A stretch of 64,000 bases of DNA from Promethearchaeota archaeon (GCA_019058365.1 JAHPZE010000001.1:128001-192000), one strand, 5' to 3'. Counted from the stretch's first letter, positions 33,268-49,308 are shown. Numbers and translations: made by a program. The notes: generated from the sequence alone by a model not told the origin.

Positions 33268-36200
33268 TTAAGAATTTGATTGGTTATTTTTAAAATCGAC
33301 AGGAATTATTATCTTATTATCAATTAAAGAATGCAAACCCCCATAAATTAAATCTGTATTCTCCTCGCCAATTTCTTGAATTATTCTATCTATTGTGAAC
33401 TCTTTATTATATTTGGTTAAAGTTATTATTACATTAAGGACTCGAGACTCCATTGATTCTAATTCGCGACTTTTTTTCATAGATTCTATATAGACTTCTC
33501 CTTGATTTAACTTAAAAGGCTTATTATAAAATAAAAATAAGAACTTGTTCATTAAAATTTCAATATCATCTTCAAATTCGATAGCTTTTCCTTTATAATC
33601 TTCTATTTCTTCTGAAAACTTAGAGCATATTTCAACTGTTAATATATATAACTGATTTTTTAATTTCTCTGAAGATGCATCTTTAAGGATCAGAAGAGTT
33701 CTTAGACATTGATAATCACAAATAAGTAAATGGAAAAATTTAAAATTCAATTCAATAATATGTTCAGCATATTTTTCTATATGTTTTTTTTTCTCTTTTA
33801 ATGACTCAGCTATAATACTTTGTTCACCAAACAAAGTAATTGCCTGAATAAAACCAGAAATAAGAATATTTTCCTCAAAATTAAATTCAGAAACATTGTT
33901 TGTGAAAAATGGCATACCACTGTTTTTTTGAATAAGCATAATTCCTTGAATATTCTTAAGATCTTTAAACTCCTGAATCTTATCTAAAAATAGTCGTTCT
34001 TTTTCTCTTTTCCTCGGTAAGAATATATAACTTCTTGCAATTAAAGCGCTAAAAACCCCTATTACACTTAAAAGCACTATTGCTATTACCCAGATTAAAT
34101 AACTATTATCTGGAGTTTGTTTTTGTAATACTACTAAAAGAAAAGATGATTCTGTTGCTTTATAATATCCTCCCTCAACAGATATTATAAGCTTTACGTT
34201 ATAACTTCCCGAAGCGCTACTTGGAATATTCAATTGAATTTGGTAAGTCCCATTACCTAAATTTTCAAATTCACTTATATCATATTTCCAAGAGAATAAA
34301 ATGTTAGCAGTTGAAATTAAATTTCCAGAATTTTGTTCCGTTAAGTTTATTTTAATTAATTTTGTGCTTCCTGCATACACATCAAGAGAAGCTTCGAAAC
34401 CCATAGTGCCTACAGAAATCTCTACATAATCTACTCTTATTGTAAGTATCTCTGAAATAAAGACGTAGTTTTCTTTTTCAACTGAAACTGTTAAGTAATG
34501 AGTTCCAACAGATAGGGCTCCCGAGCTAAAAATAGTATAATATCGTTGTCCACTTTCATCTAAGACTCTTGAAATCGCTGATCCATTCAAATTCACAATA
34601 GCACCAGAAATAAAAAGATTTGATAAAGAATCTCTATATAGAATAGTAATATTTAAAGCCATATTCCATTGAATTACTATAGTTTTATCAGCAGTTCTAT
34701 CTACTTGATTCAAATAAATTTCCATATAAGTTGGATTTTCCTCTATAATTACATATATACTTTCGAATGCTGTTTGATATCCAGGATGGCTTAATTGAAA
34801 GAATATTGTATAGTAATCTAATGAAAGATTGCTAGTAGAAAAATATACTATAAAACCGTCAGCAACGGGAGAGATCACATAAGATGATGCCCATGTCACA
34901 TTTAAGGTAGCTCCTGTAATTATCTCCCCCATTCCCGCATCTGTATAATTGACTTTTAGATAGAAGCTTTCATTAAATAAAACATTAACTATAGTCTGAT
35001 TTAGATTTACTTCAGTAGCTATAGGTTGTACTTGTAACGAGATAAAACCAGAAGTACTTCCATAACTGGTTTTATTAACAAAAATAGTAATTGTAAAAAC
35101 CTCTATGATACCTTGAGAGGGTATATTATAAGTAGAAAAGTTTAGTTCAAAATTACCATTAGAACCTAAAACTGAATATGGATTTATCCAATTAGTAGTA
35201 ATGTTTGCATCACCAGGTAATAAAGTACCAGAAATCGCTCCAGTAACATTTATCTGGCAAATAGCATAATCATTTGCCATAGCACTAATAATAGTATGTG
35301 GGACCTCTAATGCGATTGGTTGATTTATTATTTTTAACTGAATAAGATTTCTAACAGACTGATTCTCATAGTAATTTTTTGAAGCATTGAATGAAAAGTA
35401 ATAATTTCCCGCTTCTCGTCCACTTGTATCAACATCAATAACATAAATTCCTGATCCAGTATAAATCATAGTTCCAAAAGTCCCAAAAGTAGAGTTATAA
35501 GTTATTGTCGCAAAATCAATGTATTTATTAAAATCTGAATCCATATACTTTACTCTTATTAAAAGTGGCTCTCCAGAAACTCTCTCTATATAAGAATTTA
35601 TAGCAGTTAGATTTGTATGATGCCACACATTAAACAAAAATTGAGAAAATCCTACTTTATCTCTACTTAAAATAGATTGATTATTTGTCCAAATTATACT
35701 TACTTGATATGTACCGACCGACATATTTTCTCCAACAGTAAAATTGCCAAAATCTACATTATTGGATAATGGTTCTTTTTGAAGTTTCTTGAAAATTGTG
35801 CCATTAGGATATTCAATTGTGCAATTTATTTGTGTATTTGTCAAAGAAATTGTATTGTTTAAAGTTGCATTAATATGAAATGTTTCCCCATATGTAATAT
35901 TAAATTGTTCATTAAAGAATGTTCCATTCCAAACAAACACACTCCCTTTAGTAATATAATTTTGCCCACTCGCCTGAAAGGTCCATAAACCAGAACTTAA
36001 TTGTCCCTGGGGGATTTTCATATTTGTTGATCCAAACTCAATTCCCGTACAGCTTCCTATTTTTTCCACATTATATCCATCTAAAATAGAAGTGATATTC
36101 CAGTCGTTGGGCTTATAGATCTCAGCCCAGTTATTAAAATAACTATAAGGAATTGAAAAAGAGCATTCTGTTTGCCAATTTATTTCATTATTAATTACAT

Positions 36201-37308
36201 AAGTGGAACCTATTTGTCCATCAATTGTAGAATTAAAAATTTTAACTGCTTCTGAAGTAATTGTTATATTATAAATTTCTAAATCTTCTGTATATGATGC
36301 ATTTTTTGATATAGTGAATTTAATATCACTTGTTTCAGTTCTACTTCTTTCTACATCTATAAAGGTTTTCCCCTTACCAAAAGTAATATTTTCGTAGGAA
36401 TATTCTTGATCAAATTCAATATCTTTTGTTATTATCAAATTTTGCTGGTTAGGTTTTGTCCAAAGACTAAATTTAATATCATCAAGATACAAAATTTGGT
36501 CTTTAATTGCAGTACTAGTTGCATCATCTACAAATACTCCTGCCTGTATTGTAATATTTTCAGGAATTAGTTGACCAACTTCTGACATATCATAAGTTAA
36601 ACTGATTTGGTGCCAATAGTCTAATCCTATAGATAAATTAGAAAAACTTACAGAAATATTTTTCTCAATACCACCAATATTAATAGAAATAAAAGCACTA
36701 ATGTTGGGAGACGGTGTTGCTGGATTGATTATATTATACATATAATTCATAGATAAAGTTGCTATTGTATTTGAAGATGGTATTTCTGGGATAGAAAAGT
36801 TTTCTTCGAAATAACCAAAATCTCCTTTAGAAAGAGGTTGTTGTTTAATGACTTTTATTGAAACATTTGCGGGTTGCCAAGGGTTTTTACTAATAATTGC
36901 AGGCTTAGAAGTAGTATATTCCCACGGGTTTTCACCAATATCAAAAGAGCCATTTATTACCCAGTCCTTTTTATGAGATACTCCATCATAATAGATTGTA
37001 ACATTTTTAGAAATCCAATCCTCCAATAATGTAAAGCTGACATTTTTAGGTAATGATAAAGGGAGAAAGGTGTTAGAAATAGTAGCATGTTGATATACCA
37101 ACAAAGGTTTCGCATTTGGACCATTCGAATTTATTTTAAGATTTTTAAAATCATTCAAATTATCATTAAATTGCTTTTTTTTATTGAAACGACTAAGAGA
37201 AATTGAAGAGTTAATTGGGTTTATACAGCTTAAAATTACTGAAATTGAAAATAGGAATATTAAAACCTTAGTTCTTTTCCTTTTTGAAATCCTGAGGTTG
37301 AACTCCAT
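33268..37308 (-). CDS. Large single-pass surface glycoprotein with Ig-like repeats and cytoplasmic longin-like + winged-helix-like tail
   Basis: N-terminal hydrophobic signal, about 1050 aa beta-rich region with many N-x-S/T sequons, TM YLIWVIAIVLLSVIGVFSALIA, then GIMLIQKNSGMPFF...LISGFIQAITLF. Confidence 0.8.
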   Translation of the reverse strand: MEFNLRISKRKRTKVLIFLFSISVILSCINPINSSISLSRFNKKKQFNDNLNDFKNLKINSNGPNAKPLLVYQHATISNTFLPLSLPKNVSFTLLEDWISKNVTIYYDGVSHKKDWVINGSFDIGENPWEYTTSKPAIISKNPWQPANVSIKVIKQQPLSKGDFGYFEENFSIPEIPSSNTIATLSMNYMYNIINPATPSPNISAFISINIGGIEKNISVSFSNLSIGLDYWHQISLTYDMSEVGQLIPENITIQAGVFVDDATSTAIKDQILYLDDIKFSLWTKPNQQNLIITKDIEFDQEYSYENITFGKGKTFIDVERSRTETSDIKFTISKNASYTEDLEIYNITITSEAVKIFNSTIDGQIGSTYVINNEINWQTECSFSIPYSYFNNWAEIYKPNDWNITSILDGYNVEKIGSCTGIEFGSTNMKIPQGQLSSGLWTFQASGQNYITKGSVFVWNGTFFNEQFNITYGETFHINATLNNTISLTNTQINCTIEYPNGTIFKKLQKEPLSNNVDFGNFTVGENMSVGTYQVSIIWTNNQSILSRDKVGFSQFLFNVWHHTNLTAINSYIERVSGEPLLIRVKYMDSDFNKYIDFATITYNSTFGTFGTMIYTGSGIYVIDVDTSGREAGNYYFSFNASKNYYENQSVRNLIQLKIINQPIALEVPHTIISAMANDYAICQINVTGAISGTLLPGDANITTNWINPYSVLGSNGNFELNFSTYNIPSQGIIEVFTITIFVNKTSYGSTSGFISLQVQPIATEVNLNQTIVNVLFNESFYLKVNYTDAGMGEIITGATLNVTWASSYVISPVADGFIVYFSTSNLSLDYYTIFFQLSHPGYQTAFESIYVIIEENPTYMEIYLNQVDRTADKTIVIQWNMALNITILYRDSLSNLFISGAIVNLNGSAISRVLDESGQRYYTIFSSGALSVGTHYLTVSVEKENYVFISEILTIRVDYVEISVGTMGFEASLDVYAGSTKLIKINLTEQNSGNLISTANILFSWKYDISEFENLGNGTYQIQLNIPSSASGSYNVKLIISVEGGYYKATESSFLLVVLQKQTPDNSYLIWVIAIVLLSVIGVFSALIARSYIFLPRKREKERLFLDKIQEFKDLKNIQGIMLIQKNSGMPFFTNNVSEFNFEENILISGFIQAITLFGEQSIIAESLKEKKKHIEKYAEHIIELNFKFFHLLICDYQCLRTLLILKDASSEKLKNQLYILTVEICSKFSEEIEDYKGKAIEFEDDIEILMNKFLFLFYNKPFKLNQGEVYIESMKKSRELESMESRVLNVIITLTKYNKEFTIDRIIQEIGEENTDLIYGGLHSLIDNKIIIPVDFKNNQSNS

Positions 37309-40559: not shown

Positions 40560-43505
40560 TTAAAATGTAATATTTTTTTTACGTGCAACAAATTTCACGA
40601 TCTCAAATGATACAATACAGATTAAAGAGATTAAGAAGCACACCAACCAATCTAATCCTGTTAAAAACATGAACATAAAATTAAGTCCTGCAGAAGCTAA
40701 GAAAACTTGTACTCCAGGAATATATATCAGAGCAATGAAAACAAAGAATAAAAGCCCAATTAGAACAAACATAAATTTATTTCGATCTTCAATAAGACTC
40801 TTTATCAACGATTTATTTGGCCTTCTAATCTGATATACAAGAATAGATTCACAGAAAAATAGAGTGCACATCATCATTGTTAATGTCTTTCCAATTCTTC
40901 TAATATAAATTAATTGTTCTAATGGATCTACTATTTCAGATGGTATTAACCCATTAATTTGAGATGGTATTAAATCTTTATTAAAATAAAGATAACCTTG
41001 AGGATAATTTTCAGGAAAAACAGGGTATATACCACTAAAAGTTATGAAATAGACTATTATCATACTTAAAGCAAGTAAAATGCCAAATATTAATAAAAGA
41101 ATTAAAATATTTTTTGAAAGGATTTCTTCTGAATCCCGTGGCTTTTCTTTCATTACATCTTTTGAAGTAGTATCAAATGTAAGAATTAGTCCTGGAAACA
41201 TGTGTAAAGTTATTGAGAGAAAAATCCATTGATAATAGAAAGCGTCATCTAAGAAGTAAGGTAAATCCAATATAATAGCTAATATAAATTGAACAATACC
41301 TTCAAAAACATTAATACAAATATAAAAGAATACCACAACACGGACTCTTGCAAATATTCCCCTCCCATGATGAATCCCTGTCACGATTGAGTTGAAGGAA
41401 TCATCTGAAATCACCATATCAGAAGCCTCCTTAGCTACATCAGTTCCTGCAATTCCCATAGCTATCCCTGCGTCTGCTAGGTTTAATGCTAAAGCATCAT
41501 TTACACCATCGCCCGTCATAGCAACAACTTTTTTTTGTTCTTGATATTTTTCAACGATATCTTCTTTATGTTCTGGAGACACTCGAGCAAATACTTTAAT
41601 TTTAGAAAATTCCTCATAAGATTCGATATTTTTAATATCTTTCCCTTCTACAACTATATCGCTATCGTCGGTTACAATAGCGATTTGTGAAGCAATAGCC
41701 CTCGCAGTAGCAGGAGAATCTCCTGTGATCATTACCACATTAACACCTGCTTCATGACATTGTTCTACAGACTCTCTTACACCATCTCTTGGAGGATCTA
41801 AAATTGTAACAAACCCAATAAATGTTAAGTCTGATTCACTTATTTCTCTGCCTTCAACTCCTTCTGGGGGTATCTCATTCATTTCTTTATAACATAAACT
41901 TAAAATTCTATAACCTTGATTTGCATATAAATTTACAATCTCCATAAGTTTCTTCTTTATCTCATCAGAAAATTCGATTTCACTATTATTATAAATTACT
42001 TTTGAACATAAAGGCATTAAAATTTCACTTGCACCCTTTGTGAAAGAAATGTAAATTTGATTTCTTTTGAAGAGTTTTGTCATTCTTTTTAAAGAAGAAT
42101 CAAATGGATATTCTGTAATAAATTCATAATCTTCAAGAATGTAATCACCCATACCCTTCTGGAATAAGACCATTAGTGCTCCCTCAGTAGGAGAGCCAAT
42201 AACATTCCAATTATAAATGGTTTTTCCAGCAATTTCAATTTCATTTTTTACCAATGCTGAATTATTATTTAAAAAGCCAGATGTTAAAAGTAATTTAAGA
42301 TAGGGGTATTCATTGATGTGCTTAACATAAACATGATTCTTAGGGTCATCCATTAACAAAATATCCCCATCGGGGGTGTAACCACTACCCGTTACTCTAA
42401 ATATTGATCCATTTGTCCAAACATATTGAATTGACATCTGGTTTTTAGTTAATGTACCTGTTTTATCAGAACAAACTACACTTACACGTCCTAAACTGTC
42501 AACAGAAGCAAGATTACGTATAATTACACCTTGATGCCCCATTGCTAATACACCAGTTATTAAAACTATCATTGTTAACAATGGTAAATTAATAGGCATT
42601 AAATCGAGAGCAGAATTAAGACTTTTAACAATTTCTAATCGTCGTAGTCCACTTGCGAGCCAAATAATCATTAATGTAATAAACCAAAATATAAAAACTC
42701 CTAATCCCAACCATTTGCCAAAATTATTCATTTTCTGTCGTATTGGAATCTCGCTCGTACCAGCTTCTTCTAATCCATGAGAAATCTTACCAATTTCTGT
42801 ATCTCCACCAGTTTTTACAACTATTGATTTACCATTCCCTGTACTGATATAAGTCCCATAGAAGACCATATTAATCCGTTCTCCTATTGAAATGTCTTTT
42901 TTAATTAAAGACTGACCTCTTTCTGATTTTCGTACGGGTTCTGATTCTCCCGTTAATGAAGCTTCATTTACCAATAAATTGTAAGATTCTATAATTCTAG
43001 AATCTGCAGGAATTTTATCTCCTTGACTTAGCTCTAATACATCACCGATTACTATTTCTTTAGTCGGAATTTCTTTTTTTTGACCATCTCTTATTATGGT
43101 TGACGTCGGTGCTGTTAACTCACGTAAAGCCTTAAGTTTTTTAGTTGCTCTATATTGTTGAATAATAGCGACTAAACAATTTAAAAAAACAATTCCTAAT
43201 GTCAATGCAATAAAAGTTAAATTTCCCTCTCCAATGAAAAACCACGCTAAAAATAAAATTAAAGCCCCAATTAAATATATTACAATTAACCAATTAAACA
43301 ATGGCGCAAGATATATTTTAATAAATCCTTTTGATACTTTGGGAATTTCATTTAAACCGTATTTTTCCAATCGGTTTGTAGCTTCTTTTTCAGATAAACC
43401 ATTCTTAGGATCAGTTTGAAATTTTTTATAGATTTCGTCCAATTCAAGATTATAAAAATTTTCTTCTGTAGATTCCATTGGTGATTCTTCCACAGTTTTT
43501 AACAT
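40560..43505 (-). CDS. P2A-like P-type ATPase with non-canonical transport site
   Basis: LTGES, CSDKTGTLT, KGA, DPPR, MITGD, FARVSP, TGDGVND; M4 reads MPINLP. Confidence 0.92.
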   Translation of the reverse strand: MLKTVEESPMESTEENFYNLELDEIYKKFQTDPKNGLSEKEATNRLEKYGLNEIPKVSKGFIKIYLAPLFNWLIVIYLIGALILFLAWFFIGEGNLTFIALTLGIVFLNCLVAIIQQYRATKKLKALRELTAPTSTIIRDGQKKEIPTKEIVIGDVLELSQGDKIPADSRIIESYNLLVNEASLTGESEPVRKSERGQSLIKKDISIGERINMVFYGTYISTGNGKSIVVKTGGDTEIGKISHGLEEAGTSEIPIRQKMNNFGKWLGLGVFIFWFITLMIIWLASGLRRLEIVKSLNSALDLMPINLPLLTMIVLITGVLAMGHQGVIIRNLASVDSLGRVSVVCSDKTGTLTKNQMSIQYVWTNGSIFRVTGSGYTPDGDILLMDDPKNHVYVKHINEYPYLKLLLTSGFLNNNSALVKNEIEIAGKTIYNWNVIGSPTEGALMVLFQKGMGDYILEDYEFITEYPFDSSLKRMTKLFKRNQIYISFTKGASEILMPLCSKVIYNNSEIEFSDEIKKKLMEIVNLYANQGYRILSLCYKEMNEIPPEGVEGREISESDLTFIGFVTILDPPRDGVRESVEQCHEAGVNVVMITGDSPATARAIASQIAIVTDDSDIVVEGKDIKNIESYEEFSKIKVFARVSPEHKEDIVEKYQEQKKVVAMTGDGVNDALALNLADAGIAMGIAGTDVAKEASDMVISDDSFNSIVTGIHHGRGIFARVRVVVFFYICINVFEGIVQFILAIILDLPYFLDDAFYYQWIFLSITLHMFPGLILTFDTTSKDVMKEKPRDSEEILSKNILILLLIFGILLALSMIIVYFITFSGIYPVFPENYPQGYLYFNKDLIPSQINGLIPSEIVDPLEQLIYIRRIGKTLTMMMCTLFFCESILVYQIRRPNKSLIKSLIEDRNKFMFVLIGLLFFVFIALIYIPGVQVFLASAGLNFMFMFLTGLDWLVCFLISLICIVSFEIVKFVARKKNITF

Positions 43506-43623
43506 ATAATTGAATTCAAATTTCTATTCAATATAATAAATAACCTATGATATTCATAACTTTTAATTTATTGCTTTTTTACTAGAATGCATTCAATAGT
43601 AATTTTTCAACATAAAAACAAAA

Positions 43624-46494
43624 TTAAAAATGAATCTTTTTTTCTCGAGCAAAATATTTAAACACTTCAATACCAAATATCCCCGGTAAAGCAAATAAAG
43701 TACAGAGTATCCAATCTGTCCCGCTTAGGAACATGAAATTTATCTGCAACCCTAACCCGAAAACATCATTTATATAGTAATTAACAAGGTATGAAAAACA
43801 AATAAAAAGAATATGCAAACCTAAGGTAAACATACACATAACTAGTAATGAGAGGCTAAATTCTTCTTTTATACTTCTTTTAAGAGATTTATTTGGTCTT
43901 CTAAATGCCCATATGAAATTAGTTTCGAGAATAAATATTGTGGTAATAAACATAGTTCTTGCTTTTTGAGCTATCAATTCAGAAGAAGAAGCGGCAGAAT
44001 TAAAATAACTAATATATGGATTTAAATTCCAATCATTTAAAGGAATAACTTGCCATAATGTTAATTGTAAAATCAAAACTAATCCTAATCCCATGAGAAA
44101 AGCTTGTAGTAATAACATTATCCAGATATTCTTATTTAATATTTGTTCTTCATCTCTAGGAGGTTCTAACATTATATCTTTTGGATGTGTATCTATCACC
44201 AATGCTAATGAAGGAAGAGAGTGTGCAATACCAAAAATATAAATATGTTGCCATTCTGAACTGAAGAGATCAAATGTGGGTATAAATTCATAAGTAAAAA
44301 AGATGATGGCTTCCATTATATTCAAACAAATAAAGAAATATATTATAGTCCTAATTTTTGAAAATAAGCCACGGCCAATCCTAACGCCTTTTTCTATGGA
44401 TGTAAAATTATCGTCTGAGATAACCATATCGGCAATTTCTTTTGCAACATCTGTTCCCGTGATACCCATAGCTATACCCGCATTAGCGAGTTTTAAAGCC
44501 AGTGAATCATTTATTCCATCTCCTGTCATAGCAACTACGTGATCATCTTCCTGATAACGTTTAACAATGATTTCCTTATCGGATGGTTCAACACGAGCAA
44601 AGACAGAAATATTTTCAAAATCTAGCTTTGTAGAACTTCTCAACTGAGAACCTTCGATAACTAAAGCTCCTTCTTTGTGAATTCCCATTTGTGTAGCGAT
44701 TGTTTTGGCTGTTGCGGGGTGATCACCAGTAATCATTGCAACTTTTATACCCCCATTTTGGCATTGTTCAATAGACTCTTTAACTCCTTTTCTTGGAGGG
44801 TCCATAATTGAAACAAATCCTATGAAAATTAGTTCTTTTTCTACATCTTCTCTTTTAGGTTTGTTAACATTAGTAAGCATTTTATAAGATAAAGCAAGCG
44901 TTCTATATCCTTCATTTGCACGATCTGTTATTTTATTCAATATTTCTTTTTTAAAGTTAGAATCTAAAGGTTTTAAATTTCCATTTATATCAATACTAGA
45001 AGAAATCTCAATAATTCTTTCAGGAGCTCCTTTAGTAAAGACAAATATATCATATTTATTATTATCAGATTTACAAATTGAGCTCATTCGTTTTAATTCA
45101 GAAGTAAAAGAAAATTCGGTAATGAATTCATATTTCTTTTTAATATCGTAGGGGATATATCCTGCCTTTTCAACTAATACTAATAAAGCTGCTTCAGTTG
45201 GAGAACCTAGGGCTCGCCTTACCGCCATTTCTCTTTTTTCCTTTAATCTAATTTTCACATCTTCATATGCTAATTGAGCATTATTATTTAAGACCATTGA
45301 ATCTATAAATTTAATAAACGTAGGATTATCTTTCAAACTTATAGGAATACTATTTTTAAATATTTCTCCTTCAGAATCATAACCAGACCCTGTAACGTCA
45401 TATTCTTCCTCGTTAATCCAAAATTTTTCAACAGTCATCTCATTTTTTGTAATAGTGCCTGTTTTATCTGAACAGATTACAGAAACCCTACCAAGTGACT
45501 CTATGGAAGAGAGATTTTTAATTATTACCCCACTTTGAGCCATATTGAGTACACCTGTAATTAAAACCAATGTTGACAAAATGGGAAGATTAATAGGTAA
45601 GACATTGATAGCTCTTAGTATAGAACTGACAAGAGCGCCACTTATTTCTGATTGAATGAAATTTCCTTCAATTAACAATAAAGAAAATTTATAAATGATT
45701 AAAATGATTAAATTTATTACCACGATCGTCCCTAAAATATACCCTAATCTATTTAATTTTCTTGTTAGTGGGATATCTTCAATACTCCCCATTTCATTAA
45801 GGGTTTCAGATATCTTTCCAATCTCAGTATTAATACCTGTTCCTGTAATCAATGCTTTTGCTCTCCCAGTATAAACATATGTTCCCATAAATACCATATT
45901 AATTTGCTTTTGTATTGAAACATCATTCTCTTCGATAATATTATTGGTTTTTTCTACTGGTTCACTTTCACCAGTTAAAGGAGCTTCATCAATGGTAAGA
46001 TTTACATAATTTATGATTCTCCCATCTGCGGGGATTTTATCTCCTTGTTCCAAAACCACAACATCTCCGGGTAATAATTCTCTATTTAGTACTTCGAATT
46101 GATTCCCGTCTCTAATTACTGTGGCTTTTAATGCAGAAATTTTCCGTAGGGATTCTAAAGCCTTCTGTGCTCTATATTGTTGAATTACTACTGTGGCAGA
46201 GTTTAAAATTACAACGGTAAATGTTATAACTGTGTCTTTTGCAGAACCCAAAATTACAATCACTACGCCTGTTATAATAAGAATCATAATCAAAAAGTTG
46301 AAAATTGGAGCAAGATAAATCTTCCAAATTGATTTTTTTATTTTTGGTAATTCATTAAATCCAAATTTTAGATATCTATCATTTAATTCTGATGATTTCA
46401 ATCCATGATCTATATCAGTATTGAAAATGCTGATTAGATCTTCAATGGATTGACTGTAATATTTGATTTCATTAGGTTTTTCTGATGATGACAT
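43624..46494 (-). CDS. P2A-like P-type ATPase with non-canonical transport site (tandem paralogue)
   Basis: LTGES, CSDKTGTIT, KGAPE, DPPR, MITGD, TGDGIND; M4 reads LPINLP. Confidence 0.92.
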   Translation of the reverse strand: MSSSEKPNEIKYYSQSIEDLISIFNTDIDHGLKSSELNDRYLKFGFNELPKIKKSIWKIYLAPIFNFLIMILIITGVVIVILGSAKDTVITFTVVILNSATVVIQQYRAQKALESLRKISALKATVIRDGNQFEVLNRELLPGDVVVLEQGDKIPADGRIINYVNLTIDEAPLTGESEPVEKTNNIIEENDVSIQKQINMVFMGTYVYTGRAKALITGTGINTEIGKISETLNEMGSIEDIPLTRKLNRLGYILGTIVVINLIILIIYKFSLLLIEGNFIQSEISGALVSSILRAINVLPINLPILSTLVLITGVLNMAQSGVIIKNLSSIESLGRVSVICSDKTGTITKNEMTVEKFWINEEEYDVTGSGYDSEGEIFKNSIPISLKDNPTFIKFIDSMVLNNNAQLAYEDVKIRLKEKREMAVRRALGSPTEAALLVLVEKAGYIPYDIKKKYEFITEFSFTSELKRMSSICKSDNNKYDIFVFTKGAPERIIEISSSIDINGNLKPLDSNFKKEILNKITDRANEGYRTLALSYKMLTNVNKPKREDVEKELIFIGFVSIMDPPRKGVKESIEQCQNGGIKVAMITGDHPATAKTIATQMGIHKEGALVIEGSQLRSSTKLDFENISVFARVEPSDKEIIVKRYQEDDHVVAMTGDGINDSLALKLANAGIAMGITGTDVAKEIADMVISDDNFTSIEKGVRIGRGLFSKIRTIIYFFICLNIMEAIIFFTYEFIPTFDLFSSEWQHIYIFGIAHSLPSLALVIDTHPKDIMLEPPRDEEQILNKNIWIMLLLQAFLMGLGLVLILQLTLWQVIPLNDWNLNPYISYFNSAASSSELIAQKARTMFITTIFILETNFIWAFRRPNKSLKRSIKEEFSLSLLVMCMFTLGLHILFICFSYLVNYYINDVFGLGLQINFMFLSGTDWILCTLFALPGIFGIEVFKYFAREKKIHF

Positions 46495-46586: not shown

Positions 46587-47552
46587 TCATAATTTAAGAT
46601 TTTGCGGATTTCCTAATAATTCTTTTAAAAAATGATACTTCTTTCTAATAGTAGTACTTGAAAATTTGCTCGTGCGTTCTATAAGGCTTTGAGTAAATAT
46701 TTTTCGATTGTCAAGTGTTTGTCCTATATAATAAATCAATCCCGCTGTAAATGCTTTATAATTTAGGTTCTGAATTTGGCTATATGAGATTATTTTTAAA
46801 ACTTTATCAGCTAATAATAGCATTTCAATTTTAATTTTTTCATATTCAACCTTATCTGTAAAAAACTCTTGAATTCCTTGGTATGAGATATTGTTCAAAT
46901 CTTTTTGAAAAACAATTTTTATTTTATTTTTAATCTCATATTCTATTTCTAAAGCACTTTTTTTCTCTTTAAATATCTTTTCAGTTCTTTTAACTTTTAG
47001 CATAGCGTTATTGATCATCTTTTTATTGATTTTATGCCCTAATTCTCTGGAAGCTTTAATGAATTCTTCGATTCGTATATTTGTGGTATCTTTTATTTTT
47101 AACCATACAATTGCGAGAAAAATAATAACCATATTTTGATAATTATGGCGATGGTATTTGTTATAGTTCAAATACCTGTCCTTAATTTCTTGGTATTTTA
47201 CATTATCAATGTTTAATCCTATCCCATGGCTTTTTAATAATTCAATTGTCTTTTTTTGTTCAGTAAAATCAGATTCATAGTCTCGGAACCATTTTTCAAG
47301 TGTTTTAATTCGATCGTATTTCTCTTTTATTACGGGATCTTGAAGAGCCTTCGAATTACTTATATTGATTTTTCTTTCATAGTCTCTCTGCGAATCTGTA
47401 TAAAGGTCGCTAGTTGATGCTGTGGATTCAAAAGCTAAATTATCTTCCATAATTAATCCACAATCTTGACAGACTATGAATCCACTGTCTTGTTTGATAT
47501 TTTTATGCGGACACGTAAAAATTTCCGATTTGGAGTTTTTCTTATTATTCAA
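46587..47552 (-). CDS. Divergent TFIIB/TFB-like protein
   Basis: N-terminal CPH...VCQDCG Zn ribbon; cyclin-fold C-terminus KAFTAGLIYY...FTQ..I......STTIRKKY. Confidence 0.7.
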   Translation of the reverse strand: MNNKKNSKSEIFTCPHKNIKQDSGFIVCQDCGLIMEDNLAFESTASTSDLYTDSQRDYERKINISNSKALQDPVIKEKYDRIKTLEKWFRDYESDFTEQKKTIELLKSHGIGLNIDNVKYQEIKDRYLNYNKYHRHNYQNMVIIFLAIVWLKIKDTTNIRIEEFIKASRELGHKINKKMINNAMLKVKRTEKIFKEKKSALEIEYEIKNKIKIVFQKDLNNISYQGIQEFFTDKVEYEKIKIEMLLLADKVLKIISYSQIQNLNYKAFTAGLIYYIGQTLDNRKIFTQSLIERTSKFSSTTIRKKYHFLKELLGNPQNLKL

Positions 47553-47704: not shown

Positions 47705-48262
47705 ATGGAATATAAAAAAGTTCTAAAATTTCTTCAAATCATCGGTTCTATATTTATCATTCTTTCATTAATCGAGATTGCTTATATCATTTTATTCAAT
47801 TTTACCCCATTTATTCTTGATGGAAATTCACTTTTATTATCGGAATTTTTATACTCATCAACAATTTTCCCATTTTCAGGGACTATATTATATCTATTTC
47901 TATTAATCGCTATGTTTTGTTATTTAATCATAGGAATTTTCTTGTTTAGAATATCTTTAAAAAATAACATCGAAAGCATTCCATTAGCAAAGTTCATAGT
48001 CGTTATTGGTATGGTAATTTTATTAGGAGCTTTTATTAAAATGAACTATTTAGTATTATTAGGTAAAACTGCTATTACAACACCCTTTACTACTATCCAT
48101 TTTCAAACTGCTCTTTATGATATGGATATTACTTCAATTGCACCAGCAATCTTTTGGGTTTTCTTTATGACTGTAAATACTTACTATTTACTTATTGGAT
48201 TAACTATTACTGCTGTTGGAATAAAATATACTCTGCAACAAGAACAAGCGAAAAAATCTTAA
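47705..48262 (+). CDS. Uncharacterised four-TM membrane protein
   Basis: Four long hydrophobic segments. Confidence 0.7.
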   Translation: MEYKKVLKFLQIIGSIFIILSLIEIAYIILFNFTPFILDGNSLLLSEFLYSSTIFPFSGTILYLFLLIAMFCYLIIGIFLFRISLKNNIESIPLAKFIVVIGMVILLGAFIKMNYLVLLGKTAITTPFTTIHFQTALYDMDITSIAPAIFWVFFMTVNTYYLLIGLTITAVGIKYTLQQEQAKKS

Positions 48263-48381: not shown

Positions 48382-49308
48382 TTATGTCAACTTACTTTTA
48401 ATCTGTTTGGCTCGACTTCGCAAAGTTACCTCTGTAATCTTCGCAATCTCAGCCACACGGGACTGAGTTTTGCGAATACATCCGTTTTTCGCAGCAATGT
48501 AAATACATGCTGCAGCTAATCCTTTTGGGTCTTTTCCCGTTCTTTTAAGACCATTTTTTGAAGCATCTTTCAACATATTAATTGCATTTTTTTGTATTTT
48601 TATTGGTAGATCTAGTTCATTACCAAATCGAAATACCAAACTCTCAGCAGTTATGGGCTGATACCTTAAATTAAGCTCAGGTAATACCTCACGGATAATC
48701 ATAGCTAAACTTCTATGAACTGTACGCCTTGGTGTTAATGATGCTTCGCATATCTCATCTAATAATCGTGGAAAATCATGAACACGTATAGCAGCATATA
48801 AGGAACCTGAAATAAACCCATTAATTGATCTACCCATAGTTAATTTCTTTTTTGCCACAATACTATATATTTTCCACGCTGTTTCAGCAATGTATTCTGG
48901 TATATTTAATTTAGAAGTCAACATTTTTAATTTCGGTTTTGCTTCCCAAAAATTCCTCTCAATACTAGAGATTAAAGAATTTTGAATTTTTGAGAGTCGA
49001 GAGAAGAGAGCTTGCTCCTTGGCACCAATAGATTTACCTTTACTGTCAGTTTTCGTATTTGGTAACATAGTACGTGGTCCAAAATCTCTCCATCGAGGTT
49101 CTGTTCTACGACGATTTTGAATCTCTTCAATTGTATAAGCTCTCCTTTCATTTCCAACAAATGTTCGTTCAAAAATAATGCCACAATTTAAGCAAACTTT
49201 ATTCCCATCTCGAGATTCAATAATAGGATTTTCACAACATATTGATTGGGGTAATTGATCTTCATCGATTTTATTATTAAAAATTCGGTCACGATACTGC
49301 TCATTCAT
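48382..49308 (-). CDS. tfb: Transcription initiation factor IIB
   Basis: VCLNCG, ERRAY, GRSI....GSLYAAIR, PRLLDEI, GKDPKGLAAACIY, TQ..VA....ITEVTLR. Confidence 0.93.
   Translation of the reverse strand: MNEQYRDRIFNNKIDEDQLPQSICCENPIIESRDGNKVCLNCGIIFERTFVGNERRAYTIEEIQNRRRTEPRWRDFGPRTMLPNTKTDSKGKSIGAKEQALFSRLSKIQNSLISSIERNFWEAKPKLKMLTSKLNIPEYIAETAWKIYSIVAKKKLTMGRSINGFISGSLYAAIRVHDFPRLLDEICEASLTPRRTVHRSLAMIIREVLPELNLRYQPITAESLVFRFGNELDLPIKIQKNAINMLKDASKNGLKRTGKDPKGLAAACIYIAAKNGCIRKTQSRVAEIAKITEVTLRSRAKQIKSKLT

Follow-up and report, generated by a model that had tools for sequence, protein, structure and literature searches.

A tandem pair of P-type ATPases from Lokiarchaeia belongs to an apparently undescribed, mostly Asgard subfamily with a rebuilt transport site and a tentatively assigned lipid cargo

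The window analyzed here is a 64,000-nucleotide stretch from a Promethearchaeota archaeon (GCA_019058365.1, JAHPZE010000001.1:128001-192000), whose 4.74-Mb genome is that of a member of the Lokiarchaeia and whose relatives are labelled Promethearchaeota or Lokiarchaeota. On its minus strand lie two head-to-tail open reading frames (ORFs), separated by 118 bp and encoding P-type ATPases that are 45% identical to each other (paralogues A and B; Table 1). The pair had been singled out, at this same place, in an earlier reading of the DNA made without database searches (the sequence-only reading), and the residues on which that reading relied are as it described them: intact catalytic motifs, Ile in membrane helix M4 (position 301 in A and 305 in B), His in M6 of both proteins, and a retained M5 NxxE and M8 Glu. 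Both proteins have TGES, DKTGT, KGA, TGD, and GDGxND motifs and the A/N/P/M fold that define the P-type superfamily (model TIGR01494, 279-285 bits; cut-off, 62), and an AlphaFold2 (AF2) model of A (predicted local distance difference test score of 82.5) contains 10 transmembrane (TM) helices. Gap-free alignments to LMCA1 and SPCA1 match I301 with the PEGL Glu and H758 with the M6 Asp. The ratio of nonsynonymous to synonymous substitution (dN/dS), calculated against four relatives, is 0.10-0.12 for each gene, and both genes are under purifying selection.

We compared the transport site in 82 proteins of the clade to which A and B belong with that in 159 ordinary P2 pumps carrying the M4 motif PEG (PEG pumps); both sets were sorted by these same residues, and the clade is still recovered when those columns are removed. 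By SERCA numbering, E309 is replaced by Ile in 82% of the clade (Glu in 100% of PEG pumps), G310 by Asn in 91%, and D800 by His in 98% (Asp in 95% of PEG pumps), while N796 is Phe or Tyr in 61% and never Asn, and T799 is variable, which bears out the reported loss of these ligands. In A and B, the N796 position is Phe or Ser, the D800 position is His, and the site II that marks P2A pumps is missing. The site I positions are largely kept (N768 in 87%, E771 in 100%, and E908 in 93%), although N768 and E908 vary in whole subclades, to Ser, Asp, or Cys and to Ile, respectively, such that the most conserved core pair is E771 and the M6 His. Members of family f16 (L095, L094, and L126), in which E908 is Ile, have an extra His in M8. 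Ca2+ pumps universally possess site II and often have site I replaced (10.1101/2020.06.23.166462); judged by its residues, the clade is the mirror image of such single-site Ca2+ pumps, with site II erased and the site I acids kept.

The surroundings of the site have changed as well. At the cytosolic entry, the M2 Glu is Gln in 93% of the clade and M1 has a Pro in 95%, with 0.16 acidic residues per protein compared to 2.89 in PEG pumps, whereas 74% of the clade, versus 14% of PEG pumps, have a basic residue in the outer halves of M4/M6 (sidedness being assigned from the SERCA topology). Outer positions differ between the paralogues (R294, N297, and H750 in A; Asn, Asp, and Trp in B), and the position of the P4 head-group Asn is Asn in 91% of A, Asp in 94% of B, and Lys (K297) in 100% of two other groups; R750 appears in three other Asgard family groups (f13, f15, and f16). 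Also conserved are K844 at the start of M8 (92%), N98 at the position of AHA2 N106 (97%), R715 (98%), E857 (93%), and E943 (100%).

With its main calcium site lost, the clade probably carries something other than calcium and probably does not export Ca2+. The view that A and B are not ordinary Ca2+ pumps thus holds up: site II is erased, and both proteins score below all P2A cut-offs (411-474 bits, and 425-474 for TIGR01116 and TIGR01522, whose cut-offs are 703 and 798). The same genome encodes two ordinary PEG calcium pumps, along with one P3A and two P1B pumps, so that A and B do not stand in for the calcium pumps of their host.

Table 1. Features of the tandem pump genes (positions in the window) and of DedA/VTT genes in related loci
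Feature	Position	Strand	Description
Paralogue A (P0002)	43624..46494	-	956-aa P-type ATPase, M6-His clade
A: TGES phosphatase motif	45964..45975	-	P2 type, not P4 DGET
A: M4 PINLP	45583..45597	-	P300; I301 = SERCA E309; N302 = G310
A: DKTGT phosphorylation site	45454..45468	-	
A: M5 NxxE	44311..44322	-	N725 = N768; E728 = E771
A: M6 motif	44212..44226	-	H758 at SERCA D800 position
A: M8 Glu857	43918..43932	-	SERCA E908 position
Spacer between A and B	43506..43623	none	118 bp; position of DedA/VTT gene (PF09335), co-oriented, in at least 14 related genomes
Paralogue B (P0001)	40560..43505	-	981-aa P-type ATPase, M6-His clade
B: TGES phosphatase motif	42942..42953	-	
B: M4 PINLP	42582..42596	-	P304, I305
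B: DKTGT phosphorylation site	42453..42467	-	
B: M5 NxxE	41301..41312	-	
B: M6 motif	41193..41207	-	H768
B: M8 Glu	40842..40856	-	
DedA/VTT example loci	L019:8937-9776 (P0278); L322-L341		

To define the extent of this group, 400 Asgard genomes were searched, which resolved their P-type pumps into two score classes; among sequences sampled from both classes, the clade signature (M4 P-I-N/S/T together with M6 His) was present in 17 Asgard families. Only ordinary P2-type pumps (M4 Pro followed by Glu) were seen in 12 other Asgard families, each sampled in one or two genomes, and in incomplete genomes a missing signature is not proof of absence. Named members come from records labelled Loki-, Hel-, Heimdall-, and Odin-, and the cultured Promethearchaeum syntrophicum has three copies, one of which is QEE15990 (A0A5B9DB63). 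A profile search of 1.84 billion representatives recovered about 40 clusters (at 50% identity) with the M6 His, followed by ordinary PEG pumps, and searches of the ESM Atlas returned generic P2 clusters only; among 40 plasmid matches listed, none was above 37% identity and all were under 60%. At the base of the clade is a branch in which Phe, Trp, or Val replaces the Glu (P-F/W-N/S-F-P); because one arm of this branch occurs in Thermoplasmatota, the idea of a strictly Asgard clade is rejected. Basal members at L302:8001-10955 (P0167) and P0298-P0320 have M4 PWSFP and M6 His and have lost the M2 Asn, the named ones being from Thermoplasmatota.

The clade has support of 98-100 in every tree, including those from which the site columns were removed and those built on the cytoplasmic domains alone, and its catalytic residues are invariant across 55 diverse members. 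Given a single well-supported clade, A and B inherited one change from one ancestor, and independent convergence in the two is rejected. Of the earlier argument that the same substitutions in two paralogues point to selection, the purifying selection therefore stands (dN/dS of ~0.1), but the two genes do not amount to independent evidence of it. We found no description of the clade in the literature searched, a search that reached few subscription papers, and a survey of Asgard transporters goes no further than a putative Ca2+ ATPase that it lists for all Asgards (PMC7997004). The subfamily thus appears to be undescribed, as the sequence-only reading had suggested; its P-type ATPases are P2-derived and catalytically intact, and most come from Asgards.

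Two other kinds of Asgard P2 pumps were encountered in these searches. One altered group (L150, L166, L167, L169, and L172) keeps PEG, has Ser or Thr for the M5 Asn in most members, and has an additional Asp-Lys following the M6 Asp-Gly; the other, at L142, L170, and L171, resembles Na/K pumps (P2C-like), with PEGLQ in M4 and two Asp in M6.

As to what the clade moves, the most plausible cargo is a membrane lipid. The mechanism that we favor, at a probability of about 0.4, is one that flips a phosphate-bearing lipid inward, with a His-Glu pair in the role of built-in cation; all of its transport steps are ones that we infer. H758 would pair with E728, with assistance from E857 and N725, and fill site I as a cation that is part of the protein. 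Because site I would then be occupied and the cytosolic funnel is neutral, the pump could phosphorylate itself without an ion from the cytosol. A groove between M1, M2, M4, and M6, its acids lost, would be gated by I301, and cargo drawn in by basic side chains in the outer halves of M4, M6, and M8 would bind from outside in the E2P state at the unwound M4, on the backbone amides of I301 and N302; binding would trigger dephosphorylation and then inward release. The cargo itself would be a phosphate-bearing lipid head group, with the paralogues tuned to different head groups, such that these proteins would operate like a subunit-free P4B flippase without being P4.

Several lines of evidence bear on this scheme. 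Because conservation in the core peaks at the His-Glu pair and N768 and E908 vary, an internal salt bridge fits better than a tight metal site, and there is precedent both for His as an internal counter-ion, in P1B-4 pumps (PMC10654040), and for a residue that fills site I as a built-in cation, in LMCA1 (Arg795). In the flippase ATP8A1, the amides of the PISL Ile and Ser bind the lipid phosphate, as do one Asn each in M4 and M6 (10.1101/666321); at the Ile and Ser positions, the clade has Ile followed by Asn, Ser, or Thr. A third element comes from the neighborhood. Some relatives have a DedA/VTT gene (PF09335; VMP1/TMEM41 family) between A and B, co-oriented and less than 100 bp from A; an orthologue is present in 30 of 135 genomes of family f1 and, in 19 of these 30, adjoins a clade pump in the same orientation, in two gene orders. 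The two are adjacent in 17 of 17 cases in two genera, and in a third genus the gene lies upstream of the pumps. DedA proteins flip or scramble lipids (PMC10127716). Taken together, the basic, paralogue-tuned outer cavity, the amide donors of M4, and the DedA neighbor point to a phosphate-bearing lipid.

Other evidence weighs against a lipid flippase. The residues with which P4 pumps hold their lipid are missing from the clade, in which the M4 Asn is found in only 15% and the M6 Asn in 0%, the M5 Lys is lacking, and the phosphatase motif is TGES, the last two as the sequence-only reading had cautioned. The full P4 motif N-x-x-P-I-S-L is likewise not there: three positions ahead of the M4 Pro, Asn occurs in 15% of the family, Ser in 3%, and a second Pro in 86%, and the resemblance to this motif noted earlier therefore holds for A, which has the Asn, and fails for B, which has Asp. 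(M4 sequences of PISIP or PITIP, the nearest to PISL, occur in the Heimdallarchaeaceae-like family f13 [L086, L088, and L123], whose members are nested deep within the clade, probably reflecting a later change.) Nor is an Ile at the Glu position specific to P4, as had been supposed, because P3A proton pumps have Ile or Val there (PMC4937031), as in PIAMP of AHA2 and PVALP of the host's own P3A pump. Two buried acids that P4 pumps have lost, E771 and E908, are kept. The P4 model (TIGR01652; cut-off, 431) gives A and B 110-112 bits, in the range of ordinary P2 pumps, and five clade members score 93-113 bits or less compared to 102-129 for five Asgard PEG pumps. The predicted fold is nearer to P2/P3 (Z scores of 28-33) than to P4 (24-26), with P5 at 21-25, and the AF2 model matches SERCA, LMCA1, SPCA, PfATP4, and AHA2 first. 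This genome, moreover, lacks the DedA/VTT orthologue, as do 105 of the 135 family genomes, and in 11 the gene is nonadjacent; in 20 loci of other lineages it is not beside the pumps, save for one at 4 kb; and the adjacency counts come from kin, are not independent, and may reflect one or two events. Since VMP1 binds and regulates SERCA (PMC7137732), such a neighbor need not signify a lipid cargo, and a regulatory role fits too. Apart from these points, a search for CDC50, the subunit of P4A and P4C (P4B has none), found no gene in 201 Asgard genomes, in agreement with the initial impression from this locus, and no positive control gave a signal in it.

Other cargoes must be weighed against an inward lipid flippase. 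We regard a convergent proton pump as unlikely, in which H758 and E728 would form a charge-swapped version of the P3A pair D684/R655 behind a P3A-like M4, and protons would enter by a C-terminal route through R715 and E857. His titrates near neutral pH, PINLP resembles the P3A M4 (PIAMP or PVALP) more than it does PISL, the alignment puts AHA2 R655 beside E728, N98, R715, E857, and E943 are the highly conserved residues listed above, and SERCA itself releases protons through E908/R762 (PMC8037123). The clade is, however, unrelated to P3A in any tree; true P3A pumps co-occur with the clade (in 8 of 61 Asgard genomes), among them the host's homologue at L306:2849-5311 (contig 47), which is close to plant AHA2; E857 is Ile in family f16; and protons do not require two or three paralogues with different outer-side residues. 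To a similar degree we doubt a pump for soft metals (Mn, Fe, Zn, Co, or Ni) with site I rebuilt from Asn, Glu, His, and Glu, possibly working in uptake as does the P6 pump CtpE. Sets of His and Glu do bind transition metals, and N725, E728, H758, and E857 all occupy site I positions. CtpE, which is P2-like, also reversed direction after a change in M6 (PMC10654040). Against metals, the cytosolic funnel has lost its acids and basic residues mark the outer side, the ligands vary in whole subclades (N768 to Ser, Asp, or Cys; E908 to Ile), and no metal-handling genes are among the conserved neighbors.

A P5B-like pump that imports a soluble organic anion or amine through the same built-in counter-ion mechanism appears improbable: the site pattern would be the same, and the aromatic residue at N796, the Trp or Phe at E309 in the basal branch, and the outer-side Asp and Trp of B would suit it, but the P5 model is not raised (232-274 bits for five clade members compared to 236-282 for five PEG pumps), PPxLP is lacking, and there is no metabolic operon context. 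That these are ordinary or lower-affinity Ca2+ exporters, as their database labels imply, is very improbable; their best profile, PDB, and Foldseek matches are Ca2+ pumps and the site I acids are kept, yet E309, N796, and D800 are all replaced, despite site II being universal in Ca2+ pumps, and ordinary PEG pumps co-occur. Least credible of all are nontransporting scaffolds or decaying duplicates, for which the loss of canonical ion ligands could speak, as dN/dS is 0.10-0.12, the catalytic residues are invariant in 55 members, and the clade spans 17 families; pseudogene decay is rejected.

A candidate flippase-like pump in an archaeon raises the question of kinship with P4, which, like P5, has been called unique to eukaryotes and whose origin is an open question (Palmgren 2023, PMC10654040). 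Our trees contained six to ten P4 proteins from metagenome contigs, all P4A-type and with no P4B row identified, and did not include P5 or eukaryotic P2/P3 rows. A careful maximum-likelihood (ML) tree under a mixture model places P4 as sister to the clade; the support of 88/84 falls short of the star threshold, and the stem is 3.8 changes per site long. P4 is unplaced in the FastTree, cytoplasmic-only, membrane-only, site-free, and long-row-free quick trees. In constrained searches, trees uniting P4 with the clade are 5-7 log units better in two sets (approximately unbiased [AU] test, P = 0.66 and 0.62), but a position of P4 outside all P2-like pumps is likewise not rejected (P = 0.36). Thus, of the phylogeny proposed earlier, the separateness of the clade is firm, and P4 falls beside it in ML trees but never significantly. 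Among the classes, P4 alone obtains a clade-profile score not below its PEG-profile score (139 versus 129 bits), all others having clade-profile scores 0.69-0.90 of their PEG scores. At diagnostic columns, P4 shares 10-11 with the clade and 19-21 with PEG pumps (8-9 and 47-48 for P3A), and about five residues (N248, I301, Y365, G570, and I692) are candidate derived states common to P4 and the clade. As read from these alignments, the signal appears real but weak, and long-branch attraction could produce it; we consider a sister relationship doubtful. The more far-reaching version, in which the clade would comprise archaeal lipid flippases and the prokaryotic sister of eukaryotic P4, the Ile gate and ion-independent cycling having arisen in Asgards before eukaryogenesis and, in some lineages, been paired with a VMP1/TMEM41-family scramblase, is less likely still. 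No true P4 was detected by TIGR01652 in 151 Asgard genomes at an E value of 1e-45, without a positive control, and scans of viral contigs for P4 and P5 motifs yielded chance hits or nothing.

The A/B tandem is kept in more than 40 of 52 related loci, and in this family of Lokiarchaeia it lies between a TFIIB-like gene and a GNAT acetyltransferase, flanks that look like plain synteny. The TFIIB-like protein (46587-47552, minus strand), directly upstream of the pumps in 48 loci, is divergent, with a weak zinc ribbon and no TFIIB repeat match, and a canonical TFB is encoded nearby (48382-49308). A 185-aa hydrophobic protein lacking a Pfam match (47705-48262, plus strand) is syntenic in 43 family loci, and farther away, a 1346-aa protein (33268-37308, minus strand) combines a hydrophobic segment at its N terminus with a long stretch rich in beta structure, a single late membrane helix, and a tail in the cytoplasm, and its only match, to MG2, is weak. 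In seven loci (e.g., L008:8912-9448), the gene between the pumps is not VTT but a member of the C_GCAxxG_C_C redox family; in family f31, a protein of 640 aa that matches a UFM1 E3 ligase domain begins 62 bp after the pump (L363:5203-7122), and an ORF of similar size follows the pump at L364. We found no accessory subunit conserved across Asgards, co-oriented neighbors in other lineages being unrelated housekeeping genes, and a scan for sigma-70 promoters, a consensus unsuited to archaea, gave hits at chance level.

The clade constitutes a concrete prokaryotic candidate for the origin of P4 flippases, in the lineage closest to eukaryotes, and its three copies in cultured P. syntrophicum make that question testable. 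Even should kinship with P4 prove false, retention of site I combined with loss of site II and a His at D800 is a transport-site design undescribed in the literature searched. As databases label members of the clade Ca2+ or cation ATPases, part of the Asgard calcium-pump count may be wrong. P6 is the only family to have been added to the P-type classification, and more prokaryotic families are expected, with no mention of Asgards (Palmgren 2023, PMC10654040).

Set beside known systems, the clade shares with P2A pumps (SERCA, SPCA/PMR1, and LMCA1) the fold, the 10 TM helices, TGES, and the N768, E771, and E908 positions but differs in having Ile for the PEGL Glu, an erased site II and acidic entry, His at D800, and a separate place in the trees. 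P3A pumps (AHA2 and Pma1) resemble it in the M4 pattern P-I/V-x-x-P, an acid-base pair between M5 and M6 at similar depth, and an M2 Asn, although the clade has His rather than Asp in M6 and Glu rather than Arg in M5, groups apart from P3A in trees, and gives A and B 337-346 bits with TIGR01647 (cut-off, 615). P5A and P5B are like it in their non-Glu M4 and non-ion cargo; the clade has neither their PPxLP nor their extra N-terminal helices, and A and B score 245-253 bits with TIGR01657 (cut-off, 618). CtpE of P6 sets a precedent for an M6 change that reverses direction but, unlike the clade, retains PEGL and carries Ile in place of the M6 Asp, and the P1B-4 membrane domain differs from that of the clade. 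With P4 (ATP8A1, Drs2, and Neo1), the clade has in common an Ile at E309 followed by a small polar residue and a polar, paralogue-specific outer cavity; it lacks DGET, the M6 Asn, and the Lys or Arg before the M5 Asn (Ile, Val, Ala, or Leu instead), and the second Pro of PINLP is a feature of P2 and P3A rather than P4. With 17-19% identity to P4 in structural alignments and a prokaryotic distribution, the clade is not P4 but may work like one.

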